Below are positions 1 to 50,133 of a DNA stretch of 64,000 nucleotides, one piece after another (within the stretch, counting starts at the first letter, position 1; each line of letters opens with the position of its first letter). Position numbers and translations under genes: made by a program. Under the pieces are notes generated by a model, which did not search any database, was not told the DNA's origin, and saw only the letters and a program-made list of their open reading frames with translations. The DNA is from a virus (taxonomy: Duplodnaviria > Caudoviricetes), in IMG/VR virus record IMGVR_UViG_3300021426_000006, positions 39,223-103,222 of that record. The stretch is one strand, 5' to 3'.

Positions 1-31
1 TACCTAGTTGTCGTGTTTCGTCTAATGTCAT
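1..31 (-). CDS. 5' end of the next virion (ring/neck-like) gene, runs off the window
   Basis: ATG at 31-29 overlaps the TGA of the upstream gene (ATGA coupling); reads MTLDETRQLG. Confidence 0.6.
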   Translation of the reverse strand, partial: MTLDETRQLG

Positions 32-1191: not shown

Positions 1192-1210
1192 ATCTCATTT
1201 GATCATAAGA

Positions 1211-1963: not shown

Positions 1964-1983
1964 AATATAAATTAGTATGTTGT

Positions 1984-2020
1984 AATGCTGAACGGGGCGC
2001 ATAAGCGCCCCTCAGGCATT
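1984..2020 (-). terminator. stable hairpin after the capsid gene (terminator or processing site)
   Basis: GGGGCGC-ATAA-GCGCCCC core with flanking AATGC/GCATT pairing; no strong U-tract. Confidence 0.5.
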
Positions 2021-2042
2021 ATTTAATTTTTTGTGTTAAACA

Positions 2043-3554
2043 TTAATCTTGAGGGAGATTAGACGTTTCGCTATCATCTGCGTCGCAATACAGAATACCG
2101 CAAGACAGCGGGTTGCGAAGCATAATACCCTCTTCTCCGAGGAAGTGAACCTGATAACCATCACGGCTATTTGAACGCAGAGTATTTATACTATTTCCGT
2201 ATCCACTAGGAACAACAGAACCGCCAGTCGTCCACTGTACAAACTCACGACCCTTACGACAAACCTTAACGATGTTTGCCTGTCCATCACGCTGACCGAG
2301 GTCAACAAACAGGAATGTATACGACATCAGGGGTTTACCGGTCAGAGGATGAAGCTGACGGAACATATCCATGTTATCGAACAGAGGACAACGCTTCAGA
2401 GTCAGCTCAATACCGTTGGTCATCTTATAAGTAGTAAACTGTCCGCCAAGAGTCAGGTTCTGACCACTACCAGTAACAAATACAGTATCGATCATATTAA
2501 AGCTTGCTACCTTCTCCTTCAGGATACGGTCAAACTCGCGAATACCCATCTCACCAGTCAGAGCGATAAACTTGCGCTCGTTTGTTCCAAGCATGTTATA
2601 GCAAAGATCAAACAGATAATCTTCGAGCAGTTCTGCGGTAAGAGTAGTATAGTAACGAACGTTAGCGGGGCTAATCTGCTCGAACAGACCAGACATTGTG
2701 GGTGCGGGTCTTCCATTTGAGCCTTTAGTAAGATAAGTACCATCAGAAAGACGATTTGACTTCGAGAAAAGTAGAGCCTTTTCCTCACGCTTCTTCCACT
2801 CACGAAGAGCAATCCAATACTGATAATCAGACCACAGATAAGATGTTTTACCAGACTCGGGATCCTTCAAAGCGATAGCGAGCACTGTGCTATAAGCATC
2901 ACCGGTAATATCGTAAGACAAACGAAGAGTCTGAAGATGGTTACGCATCTTAAAAGGAGTCTGATAGTTGATGATATCTGCCTCATCACTATACTCCTCG
3001 TAAGCAGAACCCATACGGCTTACCTGACGACCAGGAAGCAGGAACTCTCCAGGGATATAAGCAGCTTGAGAACCATCAACAACATAACACTCATACACCC
3101 AAGCGTTACCGTCCTGATAAGGAGTAGCGCCAACACGAACCTGGAAACGATAGTCGTCGAATGACAGGATAGCACCTACGTTAAACCACTTCTCTTCGAG
3201 AGCGATATAAATAGGAGCACCGTTGGCACCAGGAGTAATTTGGTTAAAGTTGCTTGTATTAACTTCTACACCGTTAGACTTAGCCCAACGAATGTTTACA
3301 GCATGATCGCTGTCGATCATCACAGACCACTCAAACTCGCGGTTGTCGATAATCATAGTTTTGCCGAGACCGCCAGTAATAAGGTCAATTGCGGTAGATA
3401 CACCGTCATCTTTTGTACCAAATACCAGTGACAGAAGACCAGATACCTCATGAGGTCTTGTCAGCAGTGCATTAGAAATCATATTCTCATCTACCAGGTC
3501 CGAGAAACGACGTCCACGATACAGCTGGAGATTATTAAGTAAACTATTATTCAT
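2043..3554 (-). CDS. major capsid protein (crAss-like, HK97 fold), 503 aa
   Basis: Size, sequence character and the gene order terminase-portal-scaffold-MCP match Crassvirales; contains no TAG. Confidence 0.9.
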   Translation of the reverse strand: MNNSLLNNLQLYRGRRFSDLVDENMISNALLTRPHEVSGLLSLVFGTKDDGVSTAIDLITGGLGKTMIIDNREFEWSVMIDSDHAVNIRWAKSNGVEVNTSNFNQITPGANGAPIYIALEEKWFNVGAILSFDDYRFQVRVGATPYQDGNAWVYECYVVDGSQAAYIPGEFLLPGRQVSRMGSAYEEYSDEADIINYQTPFKMRNHLQTLRLSYDITGDAYSTVLAIALKDPESGKTSYLWSDYQYWIALREWKKREEKALLFSKSNRLSDGTYLTKGSNGRPAPTMSGLFEQISPANVRYYTTLTAELLEDYLFDLCYNMLGTNERKFIALTGEMGIREFDRILKEKVASFNMIDTVFVTGSGQNLTLGGQFTTYKMTNGIELTLKRCPLFDNMDMFRQLHPLTGKPLMSYTFLFVDLGQRDGQANIVKVCRKGREFVQWTTGGSVVPSGYGNSINTLRSNSRDGYQVHFLGEEGIMLRNPLSCGILYCDADDSETSNLPQD

Positions 3555-3567
3555 AAATTAATTAATT

Positions 3568-4734
3568 TTAAAACAGACCTGAGGCAAGATCTACAACTGA
3601 TTTTTGTTTTTCTTGATCAATATTAAATGTTGAATGGTTTTTTTGCGTATGTCTTAGAAGTTTTCTAAGCTTTTCTGCAGCAGACGTTTCTCCAGTCTTT
3701 TTAGCGTTTGAAATAAGAGCATCAGCTTTCATTGTAAAATAAGCTGATTCGATTAGGTTTTTTGAAAGATTTTTATTAAAATCCTTTTGATATTGTGACA
3801 ACCCATCGCTGTCTACTTTAAATATATATTCAAACAAAGCCTTCCTATCTTCTTTAGGAATAGAGATTCCACGAATATCTGTAAGGTTATTTATGTCATT
3901 AGAAACAGAATTAAAGAATTCTCTAGAAGCTGCTTCTTGTTGCTCTGCATATTCGCGTTGCTTTCTAGAAGCCTCTTCTTCTTCTCGCTTTCTAATTGAT
4001 TTAAGCCTTTCTAATGCGTCTTCAGATTCCTCGTAAAGCATATCGGCATCTTCGTATCTATTGATTCGTTTGTTAATTTGATCGTCCGTATACCCATCAT
4101 GCTTCAATAGTTCTCTTATTACGTTCTTCTGATTACTCTCATCTTCCATATCTATAGAATCAAGAGCTAGATCATTTTTTTGTATACTGTAAAAATCTTC
4201 AAAATTTCCGCCGTTCTTAATGTATTCGTCAAGCATCTGAACACGTTCGTCTGCATACTGCGGAACTGAATTTTGTTTTACAGCTTCTGTAAGATATTGT
4301 GTAAGATCGTCTACAGTAAGCGGTCTATCTTCATCTTTTATATCAGACATATTCCAGCCAAGAGACTCTCCAACCGCCTCAAAGAGAAGACCGATTTTCT
4401 GAGCTTCTATTAGATCAGATTCGGTCGGCGTTTCGTCATTGCCATCTTCTTCAGATTCGAGAGTCTGATTTTGTTCTACGTTGTTCATTTTGTCAAGAAC
4501 ATCCTGTGGAATGTTACTGTTGTCTTCTTTTGCTGTTTTATCTTCAACAACAGGTTCTTTTTCATTACCTTCCTCAGCTTGTGCTGGAACAGTTTCTTTA
4601 TCTTCTTCAAGCGGTGTTGTTGGAGGGAATAGGTCATCTACATTTGATATTCCATTACCCTCTTCAGCGTTGCTATAGATGTTTCCTAAAACATCTTCAA
4701 AGCCGCTTGGAATTGTATTTTTCTTTTTTGCCAT
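3568..4734 (-). CDS. acidic coiled-coil putative scaffold/structural protein (crAss gene-75-like)
   Basis: 388 aa, very D/E-rich N-terminus, helical C-terminus, directly upstream of the MCP. Confidence 0.75.
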   Translation of the reverse strand: MAKKKNTIPSGFEDVLGNIYSNAEEGNGISNVDDLFPPTTPLEEDKETVPAQAEEGNEKEPVVEDKTAKEDNSNIPQDVLDKMNNVEQNQTLESEEDGNDETPTESDLIEAQKIGLLFEAVGESLGWNMSDIKDEDRPLTVDDLTQYLTEAVKQNSVPQYADERVQMLDEYIKNGGNFEDFYSIQKNDLALDSIDMEDESNQKNVIRELLKHDGYTDDQINKRINRYEDADMLYEESEDALERLKSIRKREEEEASRKQREYAEQQEAASREFFNSVSNDINNLTDIRGISIPKEDRKALFEYIFKVDSDGLSQYQKDFNKNLSKNLIESAYFTMKADALISNAKKTGETSAAEKLRKLLRHTQKNHSTFNIDQEKQKSVVDLASGLF

Positions 4735-4766
4735 ATTGCAATATAGTTAATTAAGTTTTATTTTAT

Positions 4767-4928
4767 TCAGACTTCATTGTCTGTATTTTGTAAAAGTTTT
4801 ATAGTTTTGCATCTACGAATAAGCTCAACAAGTTCATTAGGAGATACGCTAATGGTTTTCCATACATATGTTGGGTCACACCCGCAAGTTCCACCGAGCC
4901 ACCATTCTTCTTGTATTTGTATTTTCAT
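4767..4928 (-). CDS. small hypothetical protein (53 aa)
   Basis: ATG 1 nt after the TAA of the upstream gene; MKIQIQEEWWLGGTCGCDP. Confidence 0.55.
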   Translation of the reverse strand: MKIQIQEEWWLGGTCGCDPTYVWKTISVSPNELVELIRRCKTIKLLQNTDNEV

Positions 4929-4929
4929 A

Positions 4930-6642
4930 TTACTTATTATTATGCAATCCATATCCAATACCTCCAACGACTGGCGCAGTAAGCGTTGTCGCGTTTTCAT
5001 TGAGCCATTTTGCAGCTTTTTCGTAGTCTGTTATAATATTAAAAAACCGACTCATATTATTGTCCATGTTTGACGGATCCATAAAATATTTTCCACTCGC
5101 ATAACGTAGATGAGCGGCAGTCAATGGTTCGTGTACTAGACCAAACATATCTTTTAATTGTGTACCTCTCGCGGCAAGTTCGTCGGATCCATTTTTTACA
5201 AAGTAGTCGTCCAAAGGTAAGTTGCTTAAATCAAACCCTTCTGGAGTGTTGTGTATCTTGTCAAACGCATGATGCCTTTCGTGAGACACCACTTTCCAAT
5301 ATAAATCTTCAGCTTCACTCTATGTCAATTTTCTACCTAGCTGAGCTTCTCTTGTAGAAAACAATTTTGATTTTGATATAAATATAGGTTTATCTTTAAG
5401 CGGTAGCATAAAACCAGCAGACGACGATCGAACCTACGGATCACTCAAAAACTTGATTGCACCATCCCTGTTTCCGAAAGCGTTATTTTCTAACCACTGG
5501 ATTGCTGATTCATAATCAGCAGCGTCGTCAATATTATATACCCTACCGACTCCTTCTACAAAATCTCCATTAATACGAGCACGATTGTTATGCAAGTTAA
5601 ATATTTGCTTTCCGTGAAAACCTTTATTTTCGTAAAGCATCTTTTCAATCATGTCTGCTTCTTGCCGTGTTGTAAATTTTTGTGTTATTGGATCTATTGT
5701 ATACTTTTGTGCGTTTTCCGGTATATTCGGATACACATCTGGTAATTTTGGTTTTTTGAGAATATTACCTACTTCGTATTCCGGGTGAACAGCCCGCCAT
5801 GCATCGTCACGAGCTTTCATTTTTGCGATTTCTTTGCGCACATTATCGTAATCTATAATCTTTGATTGCTTTAATGGCTATAAAAAACCTCTAACACCAG
5901 ATAAAATATCAAATTCTGGGCTGACTGTTTCGAGACCCTGGTTCATAGGTAGCCCAGTAAAGGGATTGTGTGTAGCGTTGTATTCATCTCTCCATTTAAC
6001 AGCTTGTTCCGAATTATCTATCTTTTTCGGAACATACGTGTATTTAGTTTTTCTTGGAGTTACAACAAGACCTTCGAAAGTTCTAGTCATATCGTCGTTT
6101 GCAGCCCTGAACCAACCTCCTTGACCGTCTTGGTAATATCTATATGAATCCTTACCATCATCAAATTTAGGAATTTTCCATACATTCTTTTTTGGAACAT
6201 ATCTGTCATAAACAACGCCTTTTTCTAGTCTATAGTTTTCTCTAAAATCCTAATTGTCCGGACCCCAATAGCCATATACGTCTTCCATCCATCTTGTTGG
6301 ATGACTATTTGGTTTCATGAATTCATAATTGCCAGTAGATTTATCGTATGCCACACTGTTTGCGTGCCAGGAAGGTATTTCTATGCCATACTGTCCGTAC
6401 TTTCCACTATTGCCAAGAGTATACATTCCCTGCCCAATTGCTTCGGAGAATGTTTTTGGTTTATCATTCAACTCCCAATAACGTCTCGTCCTGTAATCTC
6501 CTATTGGCTTTTGATTATCTGGAAGAGTTTGGCGGAAAGACTCAAATTCTTCATCATCAACAGGCTTACCGTTCTTATACGCAGGCAAACCTTCTTTCCA
6601 TCTCTTAAAACGCTCTCTAAATTGTGTTGGATCTCTACGCAT
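4930..6642 (-). CDS. 570-aa protein with C-terminal zincin (HExxH) metallopeptidase domain, TAG=Gln
   Basis: Four track ORFs are in frame and joined across 4 TAG codons; VVSHERHHA at about 5270-5295 and a downstream ELAAR glutamate. Confidence 0.75.
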
Positions 6643-6799
6643 ACATACCTCCTTCCATTCTATTAGATAATAAATTAGCTATTAAGTTGTGTATAAAATC
6701 ATTAGCTTCATCATGCTGTACTAAATGAAATATAGCTCTTAGAAGCTCATTGTTTTGTCTTGTAAGCTCTAAGAGCTCTTGTTCTTCATTTCTTGTCAT
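6605..6799 (-). CDS. small helical hypothetical protein
   Basis: ATG overlaps the portal TGA; MTRNEEQELLELTRQNNELL; ends at TAA 6605 in code 15 (TAG 6635 in code 11). Confidence 0.55.
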
Positions 6800-9285
6800 T
6801 TCTCTCCTGAAACTTTGTTTGCCCTAGCTGTACGTGCTTTAATCTTCTCTCTTTCAAGAGCAGCTTCATCTTTGGCTTTCTGCAATTCCATCTCGTGCTT
6901 CATACGCTCACGTTCAAGCTCAATCTTCTTATCTTCAATCTCTTTCTTTTGTTTAGCCTCGTAACGCTTAGTATATTCGTCAGACAGAATCTTACGTTGT
7001 TGTGTAGCATCTTTGGCGATCTCCATTGGATCAGGTATATTGTTTGCGTTCGCATCCTTGTCCTCAGTTCCACGATAAGCACTAATCTCAGCTACAGCAA
7101 TCTTAGTTTGATTATCAGCATCGATCTTATATCTCTCAAGATCCATCTTAGCTTCCTCAAGCATAAGTTCTTGTTCACGCTGTTCGTTCTGCATCTGTTG
7201 TAACTGTACAGCTTGCTGTTGTTCTGCTTCTTGTGCTTGCTGTTGCATTTGCTCTTGACGAGTCTGCATCTCCTGAAGCTTTTGCTTGATTATGTTAAAG
7301 TTATCGTTAGTAAGGATTTCAGCAGCTTCAAGTAGACTAGCACCATTCTACATCGCAGGTTGAATGAGTTGTTGAAGTTTTTGTATGTTCTCAAGATCTT
7401 TAGATGTATCTGTTACAAACACATCCATGTCTTCATAATAGAATTTATCAGAAATGTCTATATATGCGCGCTCTCCATTATCAAACACATACGACAGTTT
7501 TTGTTTACCTGTTTGTTCCCAAGCTCCTTTTGCTGTATTTAGAAGCATATTGAGCACATGTCGTTTGCATTGGTTGTGTGCCCAGAATAAAGGTTCTGTA
7601 ATATGTGAAGACTGTACAACTGATCGCTCCACGTTACCAACAAGTTCATTAGAACTAATTGCTCCTTGCCGCTGCTCTGTAATACCAGATATAGTACCAG
7701 CCAGTTGTTCTATCTTATCCATTAACTGAATGTACTCTGCTATTACGTTGGACATAGTAAGATCGAGAGATGTAATCTGATTAAACGTAGCAGGTTTACC
7801 TCCTTCTCGTCCAGGAACGTTCCAACCTTCTTCGTAAGGATTTATAAAGTTCACACCTACACTGGATAAGTAATGCATCCAACGATCTGGAGTTATATTC
7901 ATGGACTTTGGGATCTAAGTAATATCCATGTTTATTACTTTACCCTTATCTCTTGCAATTGCCAACTCTAAACGATACCACAGTACGATATACATGTATT
8001 GCAGTGGTTTGAGTATACTAACAAGCGATCTGGGCCTGCTGTTTGTATTGCTGTATATACAACCACAATAAGGAAGCTTTTGAGAATTTGGGTTATCTAT
8101 AGATACATGCTGGTATTCCAACGGCTGTATGCCAAAGTATAAATCAGAACCAGCTCTATATCCCTCCCACACTTCTATAATCCAATCGGGTTCTACAGAA
8201 AGCTCTGTACCAGTCTTTTTATAGCTTTCGTCTGCTATTTCTATCTAAGGCTGGCCAGCTTCATCTAGAGTAGTGACGTAATATATTTTCTTAAACGACT
8301 TCCAGCAACAATGCCATACGTTTATAGAATATCTATTCTTCTAATCAAACGCAGGATTGTCGTATATGCGCCACTGGATACCACCGCCAAAATTATCTAC
8401 AGGATCTTTTTCTCCTGCGTCATTCATTGGCACACCAGTAAGCATTTCGTTCAATTTATTAAGATCTTTTTCTGAAATTTTATTGAAATATCTATCGTAA
8501 ACCTCATATACAGGCAAACGCATCTTCCTACAACACCATGACCCGTCTTCTATGAATTCTAAGTCGGGACTCTTATCGTGTGAGAAATACATCGGGTTCA
8601 CTCTTTCTGCGTAAGGCTCGTCGTTTAGAACACCAACGTAATATACTTCCTCTCCTGCAATCAATGCATCTTTCCACGCTTTCAAAAACTCATTATCCAA
8701 ATTAAGCTTTTCTCGCAAGTATACGAGTGTATGATATGCAGTATTTTCTACAACGTCTTTATAATCGCGCTGCATGTATTTTGCAATCGCCTCTGGAGGC
8801 ATTATTTCCCCGCTTTGGAGTTGCTGCTAGAACTATTGCTGCTCCTCTGGACTCATTTTTCCAGTAATTGCAGCCATTATATACTGCATGAGGAACTCTT
8901 TCTCTTTATCCATCAATTCGGATGCAGCTTCCTGAGAAGTACGCACAACTCTAAAATTCATCGGTCTCTTTGTTTCTTCACCTATAAGAAGGTCTATCTT
9001 AGGCCGGATAATATTGAAGTCTTGCGGGCTTGCGGGAAATCCGTCTTCAACTTTAAAAGGATTTGTCACTCGTTTAAAATCCTTTTCGTCAAATATACTA
9101 TTATATAGATTATAATAAGTTTGCATTTCCCCGAATTGTGTCTTACTCAAGCCTCCAGATGCCACATTACCTTCTCCGATAATGTAGTTTACACAATCAT
9201 GCTACCATTTTTCGTTCTTTTTTGATAATGGTAGTTTCTATTGAGGAAACGTCGAATTGTATAAATTGTCTTCTACTTTAATCAT
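6796..9285 (-). CDS. portal protein, 829 aa, TAG=Gln
   Basis: Five track ORFs in one frame joined through 8 TAG codons (9238, 9202, 8833, 8827, 8341, 8245, 7915, 7348), giving FPQ(Q)KLP, EEQQ(Q)F(Q)QQLQ, AM(Q)NG; follows the terminase; C-terminal coiled coil. Confidence 0.9.
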
Positions 9286-9287
9286 TG

Positions 9288-11348
9288 TTAAAAGCTAAAT
9301 AACGGTATGTCATCGTTTACATTGTCTTTGGAAGCAAACCATTGCTAACTAAACAGTGGTAATTCGAAGAGCTCAACCTATTTGTTTTTATCTTTTGCAG
9401 CGGCCACTTTTACTTGAAACAATTCTTCTCTGTATATCATTGTCATACAAAGAGCTATCACTCGGTCTACGTTTTTTATACCGTCGTTTTCAATAAGTTC
9501 TTCTATAAGCGGTTCGCTGTATACTCTCTCTATATTAGGGTGTCCTGGCTCATATTCTTCCATCAACCATTCTAATATTAAACCTTCTCCATACGCCCTA
9601 ATAGCTTTTGTCATGTGGCAGCCTTTTCGGCGCTGCACTTTACTGTCTTTAAAGACTTCCGATATAATTTTATCTGGCTAATCTGCCAGCAAATAATCAC
9701 AGTGTTTATTTGTAAAATATGGGTATATGCCCTTTCTTTCGTTCTCAAATAACAGTCGCGCATTATAGAATATCAAAAGCTTTCTAACATTTTCATAATA
9801 TTCTTCTGCTGTATCTGGACGACCTGTGTATTCGGCTACAATTACGTCATTCCATGCTTCCCCTGCGCGTACTCTTTTAAATATAAAAGTAGATCCTAAG
9901 GAATTTGTAAATGACTCATCGTGGTCATACGGATCACAACCGCCGATGTATAAGCCGAATGGGGGGTCTGGGATAGGATATTCCCATATGACTACAGATC
10001 CGTTTGGTTTGTCATCTTTTTTTAAATGGTATGTTGTTATATCTCCTGATTTCTTTTCTGTCGCCTACACACCGCCATTTCCATCCCAACTAAGATCAAC
10101 TATGTGTTTCATGTTTTTAATCTTTGTGTTGGTACGTATTTTCGTCAATTGATCCATTAGCAACTTTCTAGGGAATATATTTTTACCCAACTCTAATACA
10201 GCTTCTTGCGGTTTTAAAGGACGTTCTGATATAAATCTATCTATAGATGTTTGTGATGCTCCTCCATCTTTAATTGTATTACGTTGGTTTATAAGTTCTT
10301 CAATAGCTTTTTCTTTTAAGCTGTTTCCAAACTTATCCATAAATATTTGGTTTCCAGCATCATCAAACGACTATAAATTGCTCCAAGCAGGCACAAAAAA
10401 TCCGCATTCTGTTTGTTCCTATCCGTCATCCCAAATATTAGGAAAACTCAAAACATTGAATGCTTTAGGGTTATAAAATATGTTTTTTAGACCGTCGAAC
10501 GATCCACCCTCAGTACCACCAGTTCCAAATAAACAAAGTAGACCGAAAGCTACACCATCGTCGGTTTCTACAGCAGGCTGCTCTATTCGCCAAGCTGTTT
10601 CTAGATTCGGGAATTTACCACCTTCTTCAAATAGTACAAGCTTGCCACGAGTACCACGAAGACGTTCTGGATCATTTTTCAAAGTAATACCTGTTATACT
10701 TGACAAATATCCTTGTTCAGTTTGTTTACCAAATTCGTCTGTAACTTTATATCCAGATACCCTTTCCAATCTAGTAGATGTCAATCTTTGTTTTGACCAA
10801 GCTGTATGCTTGTCAACAAAATCCATTATCTACCATGCTTTTGTAAGTAATCCGTCACCAACTAGAAACTTTTGTTCAGAAGCGACAGCAAAATTTTTAG
10901 ATCCAGGTATGAGTTCATAATTTCTCACCAACATAGAAGCTCCTTTGAAACTATAACCTCTCTATCTACATTTTAGAGTAGCCATATGTTTTCCTTGCTA
11001 TTCAGCTTCTTCTATTGCGTTGAAATAATAATAATCATAATCCCAAAAATCAGGAAAGTTTAATATACGTTCTCGTTTTGTACGTATATTACCATACCTA
11101 TCAGTGTACTCTTTTTCTTCAAGTTTCATGATAGGGCTGTAATTTAAATAGAAGTAATGGTAACCTGTTATAGCGTCTCCATCAGGTGCCACATATCCAT
11201 TTAAACACCTATTTGTTTCTTGCTCCCAAAATTGTATATAATCGGTAGTACCTCTGGGAGCTAATGTATAACAGCCGTGTTCTTGAAAAAATATAGCCGA
11301 CTGTCGAAACTTATCAGAAGAATAAATTTTTTTATTAAAGTCTACCAT
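9288..11348 (-). CDS. terL: terminase large subunit, 686 aa, TAG=Gln
   Basis: Joined through 9 TAG codons; Walker A LKCR(Q)RGYS with TAG at the conserved Gln (10962-10964), Walker B LVLFEEGG, FGTGG coupling motif, nuclease YIGGCDPYD. Confidence 0.92.
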
Positions 11349-11353
11349 AGCTA

Positions 11354-11923
11354 TTATGAATTATAAACAGAATTTAAACGATTCATCCAACCGGTTAACC
11401 ATTTTTTCTGTGATGGGTTTCTAGAAACAATTCCGTCGAAAAACTATTTTCTAGCGTCGTAGAGCTTTTTCTTTAACCCGTCTGCACTGTTTATAGCGGT
11501 GATTGTTTTAGGGCCAACAGAACCGTCCTAAGTAGCTCCTACGAGGCCTTGTATCTTTTTTATCATGCCTACACCAGAATGCCATACCCAATCCGCTATC
11601 ATATTTGCTACTGTTTGATCCATAATCTAATCTCCGCATACTTTATTCCAGTACATAGTATACACTATATCTTTCCATACAGAGTACTGTATATTTTTTA
11701 GATCATTAACTGTTGGAGAGGGAAGCCCCTTTTTTGTACAATATGCTTTATATGTGTTTAGTGTAACACCAACCATTGTAGCACCTCCAGTATCAGCAGG
11801 ATCATTTGACCATCCTGTTTTCTTTGCACGGTTAAATGCTGCTTCTAATGATTCTCCTGATTTAACAGTAGTACTTGCTTCCCATCTTAAAAGAATAGGA
11901 ATAAATTTATCAATTATTGCCAT
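11354..11923 (-). CDS. endolysin, glycoside hydrolase family 108 with C-terminal peptidoglycan-binding domain, 189 aa, TAG=Gln
   Basis: WE...SNDPADTGGATMVGVT motif; read-through of 3 TAG codons restores DGSVGPKTITAIN and WLTGWMNR; ends TAA. Confidence 0.85.
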
Positions 11924-11924
11924 A

Positions 11925-12443
11925 TTATCTTATTGTTTCGTATAAACCTATAGTACCACCACCTTTAACACGTCCAGCTTCAAGTTGTTCTGTCTTCGCT
12001 TGTTTCATTGCTATATCGAGTGATTTTACTATGTTACCTACATCCTTTAATATTCTAGTAACCTTTATAGCAGTATCTATGTCCATAAGACCTTTAGAAT
12101 AATCATTCAACGCTGCTATAAGTCCTTCGGCAGCCATCTGAGACGCACTTAATAATCTAGTCCCAGGAGTTTCTTGAAACTCTATAAACCTCTTACAAAG
12201 CTCTTCTACTTCTTCAGAAGGCTTATAGTTAGGATCTTTGAACACGTCTTTGGCTACAACAGAAGCTCTTTCATTTACTGGATACGCTTCGTATGGCGTA
12301 TTCCACCTGTGTAGCCAAATCACGTATTCGATCTCTTTTAGTGCCAAAGATTTATCTTTAGCAAGATTGTAATGATCTTTAAAGGGAGGTATAGCTAAAT
12401 CTTCTGTACTTAACTTAATTTTATCCCCTTGTATATCAAACAT
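11925..12443 (-). CDS. conserved crAss-like hypothetical protein (possible small terminase)
   Basis: Intact 172-aa helical ORF near terL; the function is inferred from position only. Confidence 0.6.
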   Translation of the reverse strand: MFDIQGDKIKLSTEDLAIPPFKDHYNLAKDKSLALKEIEYVIWLHRWNTPYEAYPVNERASVVAKDVFKDPNYKPSEEVEELCKRFIEFQETPGTRLLSASQMAAEGLIAALNDYSKGLMDIDTAIKVTRILKDVGNIVKSLDIAMKQAKTEQLEAGRVKGGGTIGLYETIR

Positions 12444-12831
12444 ATCTTTTTACAATTTTTGCAAACATTTTGTACATTCTTTGCACCAAATGCCCTATTA
12501 GATATGCAGCTTCTTCGCTGTATTCGTCAATACCATAAAAAGAACATACGTGCGATTGTACATGTTTTGCTTCGTGTATTACTGTGTTTACGAATTGACT
12601 AGCGTCTGTAGAAACACCTATACAAACAATACTCATTTTATATTCTGTGTTACTGAATGTAAAACCGGTGTTTTTATGTTTAAGTACTCGAAAAGCTCTT
12701 CTTATATCTTTTTCTGAGCAATTCAACTATCTTAATGAATCTTCTACTTCTACAAAATCGTCTTCGTCAACACCATAGTATACTAAAACATTCCAGCCTC
12801 TTTTACCAAGCTATATATACTGTGCAATCAT
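12436..12831 (-). CDS. small HExxH metallopeptidase-like protein, TAG=Gln
   Basis: ATG 12831, 2 TAG codons, VIHEAKHV followed by EEAAY. Confidence 0.7.
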
Positions 12832-13208
12832 ATAAATTCAGACCAATCAATAGTTATATGCATTCCGTCAATATCCGAAAGCCAACGATTAAAAACTTGT
12901 CCGTCATAACCGTCTGGGTCATCTATAACACCTTTTATATATTTACAAAGGTGCTATTCGTCATTTGGTACTGCATTCCCAAGGAAGTCTGCTTTGCACA
13001 TGTTTGCAACATATACATAGTCGTAAAGCATATTATACTAAAGCTTAGTGTTAGTGAGTTTTAATTTGTCATCTATTTCCTGTTTCGTGAAAGGTTTTAA
13101 TTCTCCGTTTTCATCCGACATTAAGCTGACTGCAAACTGACACAAATCTTTAGTAAAATGCGGGCCAAATAATTTTAAATACTTCTTAAAACTTTTAGTT
13201 GCTTCCAT
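12828..13208 (-). CDS. Bacteroidota-phage hypothetical protein (126 aa), TAG=Gln; absent from the ORF track
   Basis: Open from ATG 13208 to TGA 12828 with 2 TAG codons; YDYVYVANMCKADF...DDPDGYDGQVFNRW. Confidence 0.75.
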
Positions 13209-13704
13209 TTCCTTGTCTAGTTAACATTGATTCCAGTCTCGCCAGAACATCTTCCATGCGATCCATTCTACCAGAAATGTCGTTTATGGCATCGTCTCTT
13301 TCCTGTTCTTTTGCGTATACAGGATTCAACTGTTTTAAAATGTTTTCGCAAGCTTCGATATTTGTTTTGTGCTGTTCTACGCTAGCCAAAACACTTTTGC
13401 TATTCTAAAGCATTGCGTCAACTTCCTGTATCATACCTTCTTTAGTTTCGCTAATGACATAGTCACCATACGAATGAATAGTACTATTACTAGGAATACC
13501 TACAAACTCTTTTTTCTCGTTACCAATTTTAACTATTATATCTACAACACTTTGCAAATTAGTACCAAAACTAACAGCGGGGTTGTAGGTCTTATACATA
13601 GGATGAGGGGCTGTCACATTCTCGACATACCCTGTTACAACTTTAGGTTCTCCTGTTTTATCCAAAATGTGAAGAACTGTTCCTTGGCGTAATCCTGAAA
13701 ACAT
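13195..13704 (-). CDS. hypothetical protein with C-terminal coiled coil (169 aa), TAG=Gln
   Basis: Track ORFs 13405-13704 and 13195-13389 joined across one TAG. Confidence 0.75.
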
Positions 13705-13760
13705 ATTAATTAAAAAATTAAGAGTTTTCTGGGGGTAATATATACCCCCTTAAACTCGAG

Positions 13761-14138
13761 TTAAACAAATCTACCCATGCGGTCACGACGACGCATACGC
13801 ATTGCGCGGCGTCTGTAAGCGCGAGAGTTACGCATATCCATATCGTCTACATCATGATTACGCATGCTAGAACGCATTGCATAATTACGATTATATCTAT
13901 ATGACCCGCGTCTACGAAAATCAATATCTTGATCTTCGTCAGATTCTTCAACAGGTTCATAACGATCTTCGGACTCATCATATTCGTCTTCGTCTTCTTC
14001 TGAAGACTCAAAACAATCATAAAGCGTCTCTTTAAGCTCGCAGAGAGCCATCTTTTTCTTATGTCCAAGATCTTCAATCTCGTCGATAAGGTCGAAGGCT
14101 TTATCCTTTGCTGCTTGACGCGTTTCTATTATTATCAT
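13761..14138 (-). CDS. hypothetical protein, acidic middle and Arg-rich tail
   Basis: Intact 125-aa ORF within the operon. Confidence 0.7.
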   Translation of the reverse strand: MIIIETRQAAKDKAFDLIDEIEDLGHKKKMALCELKETLYDCFESSEEDEDEYDESEDRYEPVEESDEDQDIDFRRRGSYRYNRNYAMRSSMRNHDVDDMDMRNSRAYRRRAMRMRRRDRMGRFV

Positions 14139-39909: not shown

Positions 39910-39983
39910 GGACTTGTAGCTCAGTTGGTTAGAGCAACAGACTCATAATCTGTAGGTCCTTGGTTCAAGCCCAAGCTGGTCCA
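39910..39983 (+). tRNA. tRNA with CAT anticodon (Ile2 or elongator Met)
   Basis: Cloverleaf; ACAGA-CT CAT AA-TCTGT; CTTGG-TTCAAGC-CCAAG. Confidence 0.9.
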
Positions 39984-40120
39984 CTAGCGCGTGATGCGTG
40001 AAGTACGTGAATTGTTTTAGTGAAGATGTTATATTAATTCTGTTTTCATCTATTTTTACTAACATGAGTGTATTATTACTCCACAGCGGTGGAGAGGCCC
40101 TCACAGCGGTGAGGGCTGCT

Positions 40121-40192
40121 GGTCCATTCGTCTATCGGTTAGGACGAGAGATTTTCATTCTCTAAAGAGCAGTTCGACTCTGCTATGGACTA
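40121..40192 (+). tRNA. tRNA-Glu(TTC)
   Basis: GGTCCAT/ATGGACT acceptor; AGAGA-TT TTC AT-TCTCT. Confidence 0.92.
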
Positions 40193-40193
40193 C

Positions 40194-40463
40194 ATGTATA
40201 GAGCCGGAACATTGGTTACATTACGCGATGGAAACGTGTATCGCACAAGCAGAAAAACAGTATGCGTGTGTGAGTATTGTATTGACTATTACAAGAAGCA
40301 CAATTTGAGAAAGCCATGTAGTATATTTGGAGATAAACCTCGGCCATTTGGAGACAAATGGTGGCTTCTCAATAATGAAAAATGTGCAGAAATGTATGGT
40401 GAATATCAATTTCCAAAACAGGTCTTTTCCAAGTCTTCCTCAAAGACTGGATGTAAACTATAA
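40194..40463 (+). CDS. small Cys-rich protein
   Basis: Start moved to 40194 to clear the tRNA; MYRAGTLVTLRDGNVY...CVCEYC. Confidence 0.6.
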   Translation: MYRAGTLVTLRDGNVYRTSRKTVCVCEYCIDYYKKHNLRKPCSIFGDKPRPFGDKWWLLNNEKCAEMYGEYQFPKQVFSKSSSKTGCKL

Positions 40464-40493
40464 GTTATTAATCCTTTTAAACGTTATCAAAAC

Positions 40494-41036
40494 ATGAGAG
40501 GAAACAAATTTCGAAACCTTAAACGGTTTTTAGGAGGCTATTTTGCCCTCCTTGTTGTCATGATCTGTGCAGTTATAGGGTTGCACAGTTGTGACAAGGT
40601 GAACGCCGTTTGTTCATCAAATGGCGTAGACAGTGTGTATGTAACTGAGTGTATCAAAGCTACTGCAAATCCAACCTTTACTTCACTTACAGAGGTGAAA
40701 GTAGCTCAAAAGCAGCTTGCTGAGAAATACTCAGTGGACGAGGTGTTCTTGAACATGCCCGACAACATTTTAAACAACGTTGTAAACGTGTGTTTAAACA
40801 AGAATACTGTCATTACAAAAACAGATATTGTAAACGAATATCGAGCGAACAAGGATGTATACGATAATCTTGATTCGCAACCGACATCCGCTAATAACAA
40901 CACTGTAAAAAAAGACACTGTCAAAGAGGGACAGCGAAAGCCTACTGCGGGAAAGGTGTCCTATCGATATGAAATGGACACGGTAGAAGGAACTCCAAAA
41001 CGTGTATTAGTAAAAGAAGAAAGAGTGTATGAGTAA
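40494..41036 (+). CDS. putative membrane-anchored protein or lipoprotein
   Basis: Hydrophobic segment ending LHSC. Confidence 0.7.
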   Translation: MRGNKFRNLKRFLGGYFALLVVMICAVIGLHSCDKVNAVCSSNGVDSVYVTECIKATANPTFTSLTEVKVAQKQLAEKYSVDEVFLNMPDNILNNVVNVCLNKNTVITKTDIVNEYRANKDVYDNLDSQPTSANNNTVKKDTVKEGQRKPTAGKVSYRYEMDTVEGTPKRVLVKEERVYE

Positions 41037-41529
41037 TAACGCACTTGTTCTCCAGTGGAAAGGAGAACTTCTACCAGATTATTTAACGCAGAAAATCGCG
41101 GAACTACTAATTGTAAATAGAATATGCATCCCAGAGATGTTGACTATCAAGTACGTCGATGAAGAAAGTATTGCAAAAATACTTATTCGCGACGCTGCTC
41201 AAAGTACTGTAGTAGTTAAGAACACCAGTGATGATGAGGAGGCAATTAAAAATGCTGTAATCTATATTGGCGAGCGATTTAAAGAATCTCTATCAAGTGC
41301 AAACAAGCACGGAGACGCTTTAATGTTCGCTATAGAATTATTAGATGCTGCAATCGTTGCCAAACGAAGTATATCATTCACTGGGGTAGGATCTGATAAC
41401 GAGCTGTTAGCAGCTATAAAGATTCTATCGAAAACGACCGGAGTGATACCTTCCGTACTTGCGAAGAAGTATCATTTTTCTCAGAAAATCGTAGACGTGA
41501 TAAAAGAAGTATATAACAAAGTATTTTAA
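41029..41529 (+). CDS. hypothetical protein (166 aa)
   Basis: Intact overlap-coupled ORF. Confidence 0.75.
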   Translation: MSNNALVLQWKGELLPDYLTQKIAELLIVNRICIPEMLTIKYVDEESIAKILIRDAAQSTVVVKNTSDDEEAIKNAVIYIGERFKESLSSANKHGDALMFAIELLDAAIVAKRSISFTGVGSDNELLAAIKILSKTTGVIPSVLAKKYHFSQKIVDVIKEVYNKVF

Positions 41530-41721
41530 CTATGTGCCACGGAAACAAAATAAGGTCTGGAAAAACTATTCGTTTTAATCCAAAGAAAGGAGAAGAACGA
41601 GAAGTAACACCTTATAAAAGGGAAAAATACAAATTCTGCATCCGTTCTTACGAAGAATAAAACACCTGTCAGTGCAGGTATAATTAACATAGTTTATAAA
41701 CATTAAAAAACCGTTATCAAA

Positions 41722-42369
41722 ATGGGAAAAGAAAAAGAAACAAACAAGCCTGTTGCCATTACTGTTGACAACGTAGTAGAAGAAGCAAAAAAGGGTAACA
41801 CCATGACGACGGACCTTTGCTCCAAGATGAAGGCCGAGTTGAAGGACGAGAAAGACAAGCGTATTATACGCGAAGTAAAATCACGTTACACGAAGATTGC
41901 CTACAATGTAGGCATGGGCCTAGTTCATGTGCGTAAGTCGCGCCTGAGAGACGATATTGCTCTGTACAATATTCGTCAGCAAGGCCGTCTACAGAGATTT
42001 CTCTGTGGCTTCGAAGTTACCGAACAAGTAATAAATGAATTCGCCAAGACTCCTGACGACATCCTGGAGTTGGAAACTCTCGATGAGAAGAAGTCAGTAC
42101 TGAAGCTGAAGGTTCTCAAAGAGGATGGAAAGACTCGCGAGGAGAAGGAGTTTAAGGTCGGCGATAGCGTTCCTGCGCTAATCGACTTCACAGAGTTCGA
42201 CAAAGCTCTCATCAAGCTGAATGAGAAGCTTAAGAACAAAGTGAAAGAAGTCGAAGACAAGTTCAGGGATGAAGTCAAGGTAATTCAGCAGGCTGCCGGT
42301 GAATACTGGCGTTCTGACTGGGCTTACGATATCCGTATTATCACTGACAACGGAATCGATCGAGTCTAA
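41722..42369 (+). CDS. hypothetical protein (215 aa)
   Basis: Intact ORF with TTATCAAAATG leader; directly upstream of the hairpin array. Confidence 0.8.
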   Translation: MGKEKETNKPVAITVDNVVEEAKKGNTMTTDLCSKMKAELKDEKDKRIIREVKSRYTKIAYNVGMGLVHVRKSRLRDDIALYNIRQQGRLQRFLCGFEVTEQVINEFAKTPDDILELETLDEKKSVLKLKVLKEDGKTREEKEFKVGDSVPALIDFTEFDKALIKLNEKLKNKVKEVEDKFRDEVKVIQQAAGEYWRSDWAYDIRIITDNGIDRV

Positions 42370-42402
42370 GACTATTAATTATAGTTAAAGAACACATCAT
42401 CC

Positions 42403-42794
42403 GTAAGATTCGAGCCTTGAGCCAATATCTTACAAACCAAGAGAAAGCAGACTACGTTATGGAGTATAGAAAGTATTTACAGCAGAAATTTGGCATTGCG
42501 CCACGATATTTCAGCTGATACAGGTCTATCGGGGATCGACACTCGCAATCTCTAACAGTAGAATTAACTACACATAGTTCGAGCCTTGAGCCAATACTAT
42601 GAGGGTGACAAGCCCGACTTCACGGGTTATAATATGAAGTCATTTGATCAAAAATCGTGATTTGTGGAGAGCCTTGAGCCCACTGGTAAATATGAGCACC
42701 TAAGTGACTTGGTTAAAGTCCAGTGCACAATGATTTCAAGAATGCAGATATGACCTATTTCCGAGCCTTGAGCCAGTATTTAGACAATCATATC
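42403..42794 (+). ncRNA. array of four hairpins presenting an identical GAGCCTTGAGCC loop (candidate decoy sRNA)
   Basis: 12-mer at 42412, 42581, 42669 and 42763; closing stems differ in sequence but pair: GTAAGAT/ATCTTAC, CATAGT/ACTATG, GTGG/CCAC, GATATGA/TCATATC. Confidence 0.75.
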
Positions 42795-42929
42795 AACTTG
42801 TTTAAGGCGAAATAAAAGCTGTTTTAAGCGTTTTCAAAGCTTAAGTGGATTAGCTACCCACAAGAGTAGAGAAAACGTCTTAGAATGGCTTAAAATAACC
42901 TTAAATCGAATGTTTTGACTGATCATCAG

Positions 42930-42980
42930 AACGTTCACAACACTTAGAGTATGAAACGTTCACAACACTTAGAGTATGAA
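42930..42980 (+). repeat. perfect 25-bp tandem duplication
   Basis: AACGTTCACAACACTTAGAGTATGA x2. Confidence 0.9.
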
Positions 42981-43137
42981 AAGAATCGTTTTAGCAAAAT
43001 TTGAAGTAGATGATGATCCAAATGTAGATCATTTACCAGAATATCAGCGTTCGTATACAAAATACCAAGCTGAAATGCGTACTAAGAAGATTTTAGAGCT
43101 TGTGACAAAAGAAGCTTGTGAATTTTCAATCTCTTAA
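42976..43137 (+). CDS. small hypothetical protein (53 aa)
   Basis: MKRIVLAKFEVDDDP; starts in the second repeat copy. Confidence 0.5.
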   Translation: MKRIVLAKFEVDDDPNVDHLPEYQRSYTKYQAEMRTKKILELVTKEACEFSIS

Positions 43138-43141
43138 GAAA

Positions 43142-43443
43142 TCTTAGCGTGTCCCAGGAGAAGCTGTTGGACGGCGGTTCGATTCCGCCCAGGTCCACGG
43201 ATACTGTTCGCTGGTCAGATGCCATAAATTCAAAACCAGCATAAGGGGGAGGACTAGGTGTAGGCTAAACATTGCGCATACCCCCAGTCAGGGCCTGACT
43301 GGATTAGACAGCAGTGGAAAGTAAGACAGTCGAAAGACAAGCGCTTTGATATAAATCTAAACGACAACAATAATGTTGTTGACTACACGGGCCTCAAGGA
43401 GGCAGCATGAAGTCGGTGTACAGGCTACCAAAGTGCCTGTGTC
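43142..43443 (+). ncRNA. ssrA: circularly permuted (two-piece) tmRNA
   Basis: The 3' piece (GCTGTTGGAC GGCGG-TTCGATT-CCGCC CAGGTCC A, ending 43197) lies upstream of the 5' piece (GGGCCTGACTGGATTAGACAGC, starting 43291); acceptor stem has G3.U70; tag frame 43363-43410 DNNNVVDYTGLKEAA*. Confidence 0.88.
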
Positions 43444-43498
43444 GAGTGAGTTAAACTGGGCGTATTGTACGCGCTGGGTTCGAATCCCAGACTCACTC
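43444..43498 (+). ncRNA. D-armless tRNA-like element
   Basis: GAGTGAGT/ACTCACTC stem, CTGGG-TTCGAAT-CCCAG T-arm, small GCGTA-TTG-TACGC hairpin. Confidence 0.6.
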
Positions 43499-43615
43499 CT
43501 ATGCGGATGGTAGCAGTACTGGCCAGACCTACCGTAAAGAAGCAAAACTGACGGACACATCTGCAGAAAGTTTCCACTTTTCTCCGGCCAGAGAAGTACG
43601 TATATGTGGAAACGA

Positions 43616-43686
43616 TGGACTATAGTGTAATGGTAACACACAAGATTTTGGTTCTTGTATTCTGAGTTCGAATCTCAGTGGTCCAA
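43616..43686 (+). tRNA. tRNA-Gln(TTG)
   Basis: TGGACTA/TGGTCCA acceptor; CAAGA-TT TTG GT-TCTTG; CTGAG-TTCGAAT-CTCAG. Confidence 0.92.
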
Positions 43687-43703
43687 CAAAATCATAAGCA
43701 AAT

Positions 43704-44589: not shown

Positions 44590-44715
44590 CCCTGAAAACC
44601 TAATCTGGATTGGTATTCCAGCAGGGCACAATACAGCTAGTGTCTGTTATATCTCGGAAGAGGTTAATAACCACTCGGTAGTGTACTCTATCGTTACTTT
44701 TTTATTTGTTTGATT

Positions 44716-45273
44716 ATGAAATCTCCAAGAATAACATCTGAAGAGGTTGGGATAATCAAAAGAGCTCAAGCAGGTGATGAATCTGCTTTTAATGCACTAT
44801 TCTATCGCTACAAAGGATTCGTAGAAAATCTACTATTCCAGTACATAAAAGATATGGACGAAGCGAAAGACGTGACGAACATTGTGTTCCTCAAAGTGCA
44901 TGATAAACTCTCAATGTTCACAGCTTATGAATCTTTTGGAGGATGGCTGCGAATACTAACAAATCGAACTGCAATCGATTATTTACGAGAAATGAAAAAC
45001 AAAAGCACAGTGCTTGGAGATTCTGATAGTAGACTGCCATCAGATGAAACAAGTGGATCTGCAGAAGACGATCTAGTCAATCGTATGACGTATGATCAAA
45101 TACTAGCTGAGTTTGACAAGTTTCCTGAAACCACTTGTAAGGTTTCAAAACTATTCTATGTGAATAATATGACTGTAGAACAGATTAGTGAAAAGCTGAA
45201 TGTCCCAACTGGAACTATTAAGTCAATGTTATCAAGGACACGACGCAAGATTAAAAAAAAGTTAAATATTTAA
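44716..45273 (+). CDS. ECF-type RNA polymerase sigma factor
   Basis: AQAGDESAFNALF, DEAKDV, region 2 FGGWLRILTNRTAIDYLR, region 4 EQISEKLNVPTGTIKSMLSRTR. Confidence 0.9.
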   Translation: MKSPRITSEEVGIIKRAQAGDESAFNALFYRYKGFVENLLFQYIKDMDEAKDVTNIVFLKVHDKLSMFTAYESFGGWLRILTNRTAIDYLREMKNKSTVLGDSDSRLPSDETSGSAEDDLVNRMTYDQILAEFDKFPETTCKVSKLFYVNNMTVEQISEKLNVPTGTIKSMLSRTRRKIKKKLNI

Positions 45274-47803: not shown

Positions 47804-47819
47804 GCTTTGAGCTCGGTCT

Positions 47820-50120
47820 CCCTTAAAACAGGTAAGCACATTTCAGGTGGGTCTCATTAGCCCAGGTGCGAATAGTACAACTTGATCCGAGAATATGTTA
47901 GCCTTCTCAAAAGGTGAGAAACTCAAAAGGTAGGATGAAATGCTGTAAGTTCTATGCGTACTACATAGTAGAAAAGCTTATAGTAAGAGGGTAAAGTGCA
48001 TGTATCAAACCCTTCGATCCACGAGAACCGTCTGGAGGTGGAATAATCGTAAAAGGCACATAAGTCTCAAGAAGAGCAAAACTGAACCGTATCGATAGAT
48101 CTACATTCAAGGATACATAGAGGTAGAATAACGAAACACGAGTTGAAACCATCTATATGCTAATCGAGTAGAAGTAATTCTTACCTAAAAGAATTATTAC
48201 CGTGACAGCACATGGCATGACTGTCGGACTGGCAATCCTTTGCGGTATAACCGTAACGCAAAGCCAAAAATAGATGGGATGTATCAACACAATAGCTGTA
48301 GGATGGTGCTTCAAGAAATCCAAGTCTTGTGTAAGAGTCCGAAAAACTACAAAATGATAGCAAGATGATATGAAAATTAGCAACCTTTTGACAAAATACA
48401 TAATGATTAGTATTTGGGAAAGGGTCTGGGAATGAGGTGGATGCTGAATTATATCGTGAGGGGTATACTCACGAGGCGTACCGTAACTACGTCGCATTGA
48501 AGTCCTTGCCGTTCGATTCGAGGATATTTTCAAAAGAGCTTGTGAAAGTAAAGTGACCGCCAGGCCTTTGTCGTTCATGCGGTATATAAAAGTAGAATGA
48601 CCACCGGGGTAGGGCAGCCCCCGAGTTCCTGAGAAGGTTCTATTAAACTGGAGGATGCGCGAGTGAAGTCCGCGATGAAAGACTATTCTAAACACAAACA
48701 TGCTGGTAAGCGAGCAATGAGAGTGATAAATCAAATGTTAGCAAGAGAAAATGCTACTAACATTATAGTATGTCTGCTAGAAAGACAAAAAATCTTAATT
48801 GTGGATGCAATCACAATTTTGGTGGTCGATCGGAAGAGTATACACACCAGTATATTTGGATGTCGCTATCAATTTAAAGACGGATAATAGTTCGAAGGTT
48901 TGTCTGTAAGAACTTAGCTGCGTAGTCCCTAAGGTTGGATCTATATACTACGTGCGAACCCTTACTTTCAATTTAGATACTTCTTACAAAAATAAGTCGA
49001 TAATAAAATAGAGAGAATTAACATGTTTAACAAAAATTGATGTCCCCCGATAGCCGTAATAAAAGAAAAAAGTGTGGAAGACTTTAGCTCCCGTTGTATG
49101 GGAAGCAGGTGAGGTCGGGAAGTTCGAGTGCCAACCGTTTCTGAGAAGCAAATAGACAGAATACGAAACGAAACGAAATATAGACAGCAAATCTATATGG
49201 GTGGAAAGTATAAAGTTATATACATTGACGATGCAAGGCAGCTCTAATACAATCTCGAGGTTGTATGAATCCGTAGCCAATTAAACGCAGTGATTAATCG
49301 TATGCGGGTCGTAAGACGCCACGCCTCACTGTCTCTGAGGATTGTGGTAAGCAAGGAAGAGTGGGTGATAAATCTAAATGTATGAGGTGAAATTCCTCCA
49401 GTATTCGAGCACTATAAACAAATGAGGCAAGCACTTGCCAAAAGAAGAAAACAAGCCGTAGGGTCGACGCACTGACACGTCATAAGGACCGTTCGATAAA
49501 GAAACGCACTCCTCGCGTAAAACAATAGTTCTGGAGCTATTGAAACAGGAAACAAGCACGTTTTGTATGTAAGCTGTTAGGCTTGATAAATAATCAGAAA
49601 ACATACAAGTAGTAGATTCACTTTTGTTCGGAAAATACACTAGCGAAGATATTACAAAAATTTTGTGGGGTCCTACGAGCACTAGTTGCGTAAGCAAAAT
49701 TCTGCCAACGGACAAAAAGACACTGGGTTTAGTAAGAAATGAAAGTATTCAGTGCATATTGAAGTATAAATCAATATAAAATTACAATATGAAAGTACTT
49801 GAATGTACAACAACAAAGTTTGCAGTTTTACTTAAATTAGAAGAGTCTTCTGATGATGGGCACGGATGATCCTACCGTTGGATCCCCCTTAAACACTCGA
49901 GTAGGGTTTAAGTAGCCAGAATGAACACTAATGAAAGAAAACAAAAACATTCCTCTCGTAAGCACGGATAAATGATGCGAAAGAATATTCATACAATAAG
50001 ATTAGTTTACGTTGAGCCTTAGAGCCTGTAGACTTTATCTACAAAATGGTTCACCTTCCGCCACAGAAGTGAAGGACAGTAATTAATCTTATCGTTGGTG
50101 GATCAACCACGATATCAAAA
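47820..50120 (+). ncRNA. 2.3-kb ORF-free structured tract, candidate large ncRNA(s)
   Basis: Longest plus-strand track ORF is 74 aa; many short helices; A-rich linkers on plus; the strand is inferred. Confidence 0.55.
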
Positions 50121-50133
50121 AGGATAAGAAAAA

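Follow-up and report, generated by a model that had tools for sequence, protein, structure and literature searches.

A gene-free 2.3-kb tract in the replication module of crAss-like phages probably encodes a very large structured RNA

What can occupy more than 2 kb of a phage replication module, in the place of genes for proteins? The question is raised by a tract in IMG/VR record IMGVR_UViG_3300021426_000006, the complete genome of a gut crAss-like phage, 103,222 bp long with direct terminal repeats. The whole stretch that was analysed, bases 39223-103222 of the record (64,000 nucleotides), is called the window here, and coordinates refer to it unless stated otherwise. The tract (47804-50133) starts directly after the gene for a protein of 165 amino acids (aa), which stops at 47803, and extends to the ATG of a 215-aa gene (50134). 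An initial annotation of this locus had found no credible gene and had suggested either a single structured RNA of exceptional length or a cluster of unknown RNAs. Synteny, length, the lack of a coding signal and covariation with held-out and shuffle controls bear this proposal out, and we read 47804-50133, with a probability of roughly 0.8, as one gene, or several closely linked ones, for a very large structured non-coding RNA with multiple domains, read on the plus strand like the replication-module genes around it.

The tract is not protein-coding under any code. Its longest plus-strand open reading frame (ORF) has 74 aa under code 11, 74 aa with TAG read as Q and 96 aa under code 4; TAA, TAG and TGA each occur at least 10 times per plus-strand frame, and therefore no codon reassignment opens a frame. 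In nine tracts, those of the window and of eight related GenBank genomes, the stops number 39-62 per plus-strand frame. Substitutions compared across 12 relatives lack 3-base periodicity in the tract (rate ratios 1.03-1.27), whereas the ratios reach 2.76 in the genes just downstream (p down to 1e-61). Thus, the absence of a credible gene was confirmed by short ORFs, by all stops in every frame and by the missing codon periodicity. A minus-strand ORF of 193 aa (48153-48734) is not conserved, since the longest minus-strand frames in the relatives L007 and L009 have 80-83 aa, and it fits the kind of frame expected opposite a purine-rich strand (the plus strand of the tract is 58% purine). Plus-strand open frames of at least 90 aa occur inside the tract in a few relatives (L036, L040, L068, L101, L107, L023 and L041). 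The tract also matches no catalogued RNA family: a cmscan search with all families of Rfam 15, as the initial annotation had advised, found none at E up to 1 between 47000 and 51000 of the window and none at E up to 5 inside the tract of seven relatives. Repeat families, iterons and direct repeats were sought in the tract and none was found; Rfam, stops, skew and repeats together yielded no match to a decayed gene, a known intron or a replication origin, which had been named as the findings that would speak against an RNA.

The position and length of the tract (1.9-2.5 kb) are kept across a phage family, Suoliviridae, together with unclassified relatives. With blastn, it matches only crAss-like phages of Suoliviridae and one unclassified gut phage, and it matches best cr273_1 and cr272_1, both from pig faeces, with 46% of the query aligned at 73.5% identity. 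All eight related GenBank genomes have an unannotated gap of 2.0-2.2 kb in this position, preceded by a sigma-factor-like gene and genes of ~130, ~470 and ~150 aa and followed by two ~200-aa genes and the DNA polymerase gene, and the flanking genes are complete and separate in every one of them. Seven of these relatives are classified, in two subfamilies (Buhlduvirus, Cacepaovirus, Chuhaivirus, Bohxovirus, two Burzaovirus and Buchavirus), and the eighth, Dulem virus 42, is unclassified. A 17-nt pattern from an invariant loop of the tract (TGAGAACCGTYTGGNGA), used as a query against IMG/VR, matches at least 107 loci. By nhmmer, 100 of 115 candidates (the IMG/VR loci listed plus the eight GenBank genomes) are homologous, many over their full length, and an ORF-free gap lies at the same place in 61 of the about 100 confirmed IMG/VR homologues, among the matches listed. 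At least 70 copies are complete (1917-2543 nt), with order and total length kept in all 70; they reduce at 95% identity to 33 representatives that are 37-65% identical to the window tract. Across 12 relatives, the mean pairwise identity is 57.5% in the tract versus 51.3% in 2.3 kb of downstream genes. A search for relatives with the downstream protein found none, and no description of the Suoliviridae tract was found in the literature under crAss-like or Suoliviridae combined with non-coding region, noncoding or structured RNA, or GOLLD/ROOL. In a divergent group (L047, L032, L042, L091, L099 and L100), the tracts measure 2.48-2.54 kb and nhmmer matches only the 5' ~200 nt; the IMG/VR contig that carries the L047 copy is 195,667 bases long, double the usual genome size.

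From its first 100 nt to its last, the tract preserves dozens of helices and no fewer than two pseudoknots through compensatory changes. RNAalifold applied to 12 relatives gave -338 kcal/mol and 296 pairs, 154 of them with compensatory changes, as compared with -45 to -59 kcal/mol, 80-116 pairs and 24-31 compensatory ones in five column shuffles, and with -135 kcal/mol, 216 pairs and 84 compensatory ones in adjacent coding DNA of the same 12 genomes. A held-out test avoided circularity: 20 sequences were aligned by sequence only, a structure of 314 pairs was taken from 12 of them, and it was scored on five divergent others. Standard pairs filled 74.3% of the cells in these five, versus 35-42% with the partner slid by 1-3 columns, and 64-80% of the pairs still form where both bases differ from the window. 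All 250-nt bins of 47804-50133 lie above the slid control (55-87% versus 29-45%), and the two bins covering 49054-49553 reach 81-83% versus 32-35%. The longest supported helices span 396 nt (the closing helix of the 3' half domain) and about 260 nt (47881-84/48139-42). With a raw MAFFT alignment of 24 sequences, RNAalifold had recovered only 10 pairs because variable stems were misaligned, and an all-against-all helix scan was dropped for its many spurious long-range matches among conserved G/U-rich columns; both were replaced by consensus folds on closer sequences, covariance-model realignment and the held-out test.

Three domains, the 5' domain, the central domain and the 3' quarter, pass pair-count controls (0/500 shuffles each; Table 1). 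For the 5' domain, model R1, built on helices curated within 47846-48140, finds exactly one match per locus, at the expected place, in all 50 loci searched; in alignment A5, 90.3% of its cells are paired versus 63.1% when shuffled, both sides have changed in 33 of 36 pairs, and covariation is 0.531 versus at most 0.146 when slid. The loop of helix H6, GAGAACCGUYUGG, is variable at one position only across all 33 representatives. Each of the four positions of pseudoknot PK1 holds a standard pair in 43-46 of 50 sequences, and its second pair appears as CG (20), GC (11), UA (6) and AU (6). The columns of pseudoknot PK2 are unaligned inserts in A5; counted outside A5 on 20 aligned sequences, PK2 shows compensatory change in 7/7 pairs and 89% standard pairs. 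An earlier consensus fold had picked H8 for the stretch of PK2; the two can coexist only as a pseudoknot. The central domain (54 pairs) was counted on sequence alignment A6, which also gave its structure and thereby inflates its 89.3% of cells paired versus 78.3% when shuffled; both sides have changed in 26 pairs versus 15.3, and covariation is 0.385 versus at most 0.099 when slid. The count for the 3' quarter covers 49785-50133 and used a sequence-only alignment, A7, with five helices picked by eye: of 29 pairs, 22 have changed on both sides versus 13.0 when shuffled, 81.4% of cells are paired versus 69.6%, and covariation is 0.411 versus at most 0.124 when slid. Within it, the terminal hairpin (A7 helix 7) is 85.7% paired with both sides changed in 3/7 pairs, and the terminal region (50090-50133) probably serves the 215-aa gene as its leader. 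Where the upstream gene stops, relatives carry a hairpin with a T-rich loop (TTTG/TATG) and different stems, as judged by eye in alignment A2 with no formal count.

The helices singled out in the initial annotation fared unevenly. Three of them, GCTGTAAG/CTTATAGT, ATCGTTGGT/ACCACGAT and CTTAAAC/GTTTAAG, are present, and covariation is seen at the homologous positions. TTTGCG/CGCAAA forms in the window (z -2.4), though in a part that varies and aligns poorly, and TTCTCA/TGAGAA is not the conserved pairing, covariation favouring an overlapping CCTT/AAGG hairpin (47902-05/47911-14).

The pairing rules fit an RNA on the plus strand. The consensus fold is stronger on this strand (-338 versus -299 kcal/mol on the minus strand), the pairs shared by the folds of both strands, read on plus, comprise 94 G-U versus 58 A-C, and several positions in the central domain hold G-U in nearly all sequences or alternate between G-U, G-C and A-U. 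Sequence composition is also strand-specific. Of all 1,024 pentamers, none is as over-represented in the 33 representatives as ACCGT (164 versus 45.7 expected, 3.6x), which has 2-9 copies per tract and at least three in 30 of the 33; its complement ACGGT is depleted (29 versus 45.4 expected); the window tract has eight ACCGT and no ACGGT. Covariation-supported hairpins display a copy in their loops at 48027, 48480 and 49874, and a further copy lies in a window-specific hairpin at 48250. Terminator-like sites inside the tract number zero on plus and five on minus. Together, the plus-strand fold, the G-U bias, the strand bias of ACCGT and the lack of a plus-strand terminator favour a plus-strand RNA over a DNA element. 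As for promoters, a sigma-70-like scan was at chance (12 sites versus 8.7 expected), and no Bacteroidota TTTG...TAnnTTTG pair was found on plus in or just before the tract.

Table 1. Structural features of the tract (window coordinates)
Feature	Position	Strand	Details
Hairpin beginning in the stop codon of the upstream gene	stem 47800-47806/47810-47816	+	loop UUU; -8.2 kcal/mol, z -2.1
5' domain	47836-48142	+	most widely conserved part; eight curated helices, covariance model R1
5' domain helices H1-H3	47848-52/47860-64; 47885-88/47933-36; 47902-05/47911-14	+	
5' domain helices H4-H5	47943-49/47977-83; 47989-92/48009-12	+	
5' domain helix H6	48019-22/48038-41	+	closes loop GAGAACCGUCUGG (48023-35)
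5' domain helices H7-H8	48066-68/48074-76; 48089-93/48112-16	+	
Pseudoknot PK1	47996-99/48056-59	+	GUGC (H5 loop) with GCAC; 50 sequences
Pseudoknot PK2	48100-06/48121-27	+	H8 loop with downstream segment; consensus fold of 12
Insertion of ~90 nt	48351-48440	+	only in this window among aligned relatives
Central domain	48440-48700	+	enclosing helix 48565-69/48677-81
Central hairpins	48454-60/48468-74; 48475-80/48488-93; 48507-11/48519-23	+	loop CCGUAAC in the second
Central hairpins, continued	48570-76/48595-601; 48605-10/48618-23; 48658-61/48671-74	+	
Middle hairpins	48838-43/48850-55; 48892-99/48979-86; 48919-26/48947-54	+	5-7 compensatory pairs per helix
3' half domain	49024-49520	+	closing helix 49024-29/49415-20; consensus folds
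3' half hairpins	49088-92/49100-04; 49178-84/49192-98; 49323-26/49339-42	+	
3' half hairpins, continued	49379-86/49404-11; 49462-66/49486-90; 49504-07/49515-18	+	
3' quarter	49785-50000	+	hairpins 49795-98/49805-08 (loop UUGAAU) and 49868-72/49880-84 (loop UACCGUU)
3' quarter, further hairpins	49888-94/49906-12; 49951-53/49966-68	+	
Hairpin GUUUAC/GUAGAC	50007-12/50029-34	+	-8.0 kcal/mol; loop displays GAGCCTTAGAGCC / GAGCCUUAGAGCC
Terminal conserved hairpin	50090-97/50107-14	+	loop AUCAA; then AUAUCAAAAAGGA, then ATG of the 215-aa gene

Our data suggest a scheme for how such an RNA might work. It would be made with, or just after, the upstream genes, co-transcription being expected because the structure begins at the stop codon and no plus-strand terminator lies inside, and its last 130 nt would overlap the translational leader of the 215-aa gene. 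The RNA could then accumulate as a stable species and act as a scaffold, in the form of an RNA-only assembly or an RNA-protein particle, whose invariant unpaired segments and recurrent ACCGU elements may contact a factor of the host or the phage. We offer this mechanism, a stable scaffold RNA with ACCGU contact elements, tentatively and with more doubt than confidence. Similarly speculative is the idea that the tract yields a single RNA of ~2.1-2.5 kb with one architecture, which could be the core of a phage ribonucleoprotein machine or form an RNA-only assembly. If it did, no structured RNA known from phages or bacteria would be larger, ribosomal RNA aside, and a host target would be contacted through the ACCGU elements and the near-invariant loop GAGAACCGUYUGG. 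In a broader sense, the family appears to give ~2% of its genome to an RNA better conserved than the adjacent proteins; such conservation implies a function central to infection, which present annotation has missed entirely. For RNA structure work and for studies of how these uncultured phages take over Bacteroidota hosts, the tract RNA would be a first-rate target, and its loop is a ready nucleic-acid marker for the family, having led to about 100 true homologues among the matches listed.

Several observations weigh against a very large structured RNA. No well-supported helix spans more than about 400 nt, and nothing joins the 5' and 3' halves into one fold; the weakest held-out bin (49554-49803) reaches 55% versus 44% when slid. 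The folding energy of the window itself is no better than that of dinucleotide shuffles (z +0.33 for 47804-48800 and -0.36 for 48801-49800), and therefore the evidence for structure is comparative: the tract is helix-rich, as had been claimed, in that its covariation exceeds chance, and not by its energy. Moreover, the consensus structures of the 12-relative fold and of the central domain were derived from the alignments on which they were counted. The display of ACCGU in loops is weakly supported by local folding (probability of being unpaired 0.50 versus 0.42 for controls). Metatranscriptome coverage, which the initial annotation had also proposed as a check, is weak evidence of expression. 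In two sheep-gut metatranscriptomes, contigs of relatives have a word depth of 100-500 on conserved patches of the tract versus 0-7 on flanking genes, a contrast that is confounded because relatives map only where the tract is conserved; one run that holds this phage itself shows a flat depth of 1-10 over genes and tract. These runs are assembled contigs, without transcript starts, ends or strand.

Among the alternatives, a string of independent smaller structured RNAs and leader elements, separately transcribed or processed, comes first, and we consider it possible, at a level short of likely. The pieces could be, for example, three domains (the 5' one of ~300 nt, the central one and one of 400 nt at 49024-49420) together with the leader of the 215-aa gene. 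The locality of the supported helices (spans of at most 396 nt) is what such a string would give, as is the confinement of nhmmer matches to the 5' ~200 nt in the most divergent relatives. Gain and loss of segments point the same way: the window has an insertion of ~90 nt (48351-48440) and lacks a central-domain segment of ~70-100 nt (about 48531) that is present in relatives, and therefore the domains tolerate modular gain and loss and do so independently. However, block order and total length are kept in all 70 full copies, and the inside of the tract has no plus-strand terminator-like site and no Bacteroidota-type promoter pair, with the sigma-70-like scan at chance.

The second alternative, which we regard as improbable, is a long structured 5' leader that controls in cis when, or how strongly, the downstream replication genes are translated. 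It would explain why the tract runs without a terminator into a conserved hairpin and a UAUCAAA-type signal before the ATG at 50134, and why one metatranscriptome contig of a relative spans the terminal hairpin and the downstream gene (with a loose end at 50131). It would also accommodate the single copy of a replication-gene start motif at 50014-50026. Against it, the best-conserved part of the tract lies 2 kb away from the start codon to be controlled, the conservation of the tract exceeds that of the genes served, and a phage leader of 2 kb that contains dozens of conserved helices is not known to us.

The start motif was central to a further proposal of the initial annotation, which had linked the tract to an operator/decoy system through a regulator-motif hairpin at its end. 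This hairpin (50007-50034) does fold, and its loop matches the motif family (GARCYT..AAGYC) found before replication-gene ATGs, which has five plus-strand matches in the window versus 0.5 expected. However, the tract holds a single copy, and alignment A7 shows it to be recognisable only in the closest relatives (L002, L022, L048 and L011). The operator link is therefore weak, and the recurrent element of the tract is ACCGU; a sponge or decoy RNA for the operator motif was rejected, as it calls for several displayed copies and there is one.

An element acting at the DNA level, for instance an origin of replication or a site for packaging or recombination, whose hairpins would form in single-stranded DNA, is very unlikely. 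It would suit a replication-module location, with the B-family polymerase gene about 4.7 kb downstream, and the many conserved inverted repeats, but not the conservation of G-U on one strand only, the under-representation of A-C at shared pairs or the strand-specific bias of ACCGT. In addition, the tract has no iterons or direct repeat families and no turn of GC skew (the cumulative minimum lies near 31 kb of the window), and covarying pseudoknots fit a folded RNA. Weakest of all, and negligible in our view, is a decayed gene, a gene in an unusual code, a self-splicing intron or a mobile insert: some crAss-like phages do recode TAG or TGA and carry many introns (PMC7886860), but here all three stops are frequent in every frame without codon periodicity, no group I/II intron or other Rfam match appears at E up to 5 in eight genomes, the flanking genes are complete and separate in all relatives, and the tract is more conserved than its neighbours.

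Around the tract, the B-family polymerase gene begins at 54826, 4.7 kb downstream, and tRNA genes (39910-43687, with Met at 39910, Glu at 40121 and Gln at 43616) and a tmRNA-like gene lie 4-8 kb upstream; the latter, at 43108-43501 between phage tRNAs, was identified by ARAGORN as a permuted form with a tag peptide. An ECF-type sigma factor (Sigma70 regions 2 and 4) is encoded at 44710-45270, three genes upstream, and is syntenic in relatives. For the other neighbouring proteins, PHROGs, Pfam and ESM Atlas gave no functional lead. The sequence (T)TATCAAA stands 0-20 nt before the ATGs of many genes of the rightward block (40494, 41722, 45750, 47306, 50134 and 53001), and a second class of genes (54826, 56718, 58755, 59603, 60431 and 61973) has GAAC..AAGTC-type motifs instead.

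Returning to the proposed structured RNA, we compared it with three known systems. Sponge RNAs of the CsrB/RsmZ type titrate a protein by means of a short motif present in many copies. The tract RNA would resemble them in its ACCGU elements, which are strand-specific, number 2-9 per RNA and in several cases lie in loops of covariation-supported hairpins; it would differ in being far larger, in its complex tertiary-type architecture and in having no known partner protein, and a general folding test gives no significance to the display of ACCGU in loops.

Within crAss-like phages, the nearest experimental precedent is phi14:2, a Cellulophaga phage whose long intergenic regions yield abundant early long non-coding RNAs (Drobysheva et al., bioRxiv 10.1101/2020.03.07.982082). 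Its ORF-free gap (L117; 1.7 kb, record 2905-4601) gives rise to a pair of long non-coding RNAs transcribed rightward at a high level (bioRxiv 10.1101/2020.03.07.982082), and all small ORFs in this gap were removed by RefSeq in 2020. In both phages, a long ORF-free region lies upstream of the replication genes in the same position and orientation, 4.7 kb from the B-family DNA polymerase gene here and about 5 kb in phi14:2. Unlike the tract phage, phi14:2 belongs to Steigviridae, and a search of its bases 1-14000 with R1 (5' domain only, filters off) detected no homology, the best match being 30 nt long, outside the gap, with E 0.09. The long RNAs of phi14:2 are transcribed, whereas the tract RNA is predicted from sequence, with confounded contig depths only.

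In kind, the tract RNA would be closest to GOLLD and ROOL, large ornate RNAs of phages and prophages, which form RNA-only nanocages, a 14-mer and an 8-mer, respectively, by cryo-electron microscopy (PMC12286853). GOLLD is the largest of the three RNAs studied there, with 'many members exceeding 800 nt' (PMC12286853), and among ornate phage RNAs it is the largest whose structure has been solved; the tract RNA, at 2.1-2.5 kb, would be two to three times longer. It also differs from GOLLD and ROOL in matching neither Rfam model and in its fixed place in the replication module of one phage family, and whereas their cages have been seen, it is predicted from sequence. GOLLD and ROOL often lie by tRNA islands; in the genome arm of the tract, a tRNA island lies about 4 kb upstream and not adjacent. 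Like both of them, the tract RNA would be phage-encoded, very large, pseudoknotted and covarying, and without a known protein partner or function.

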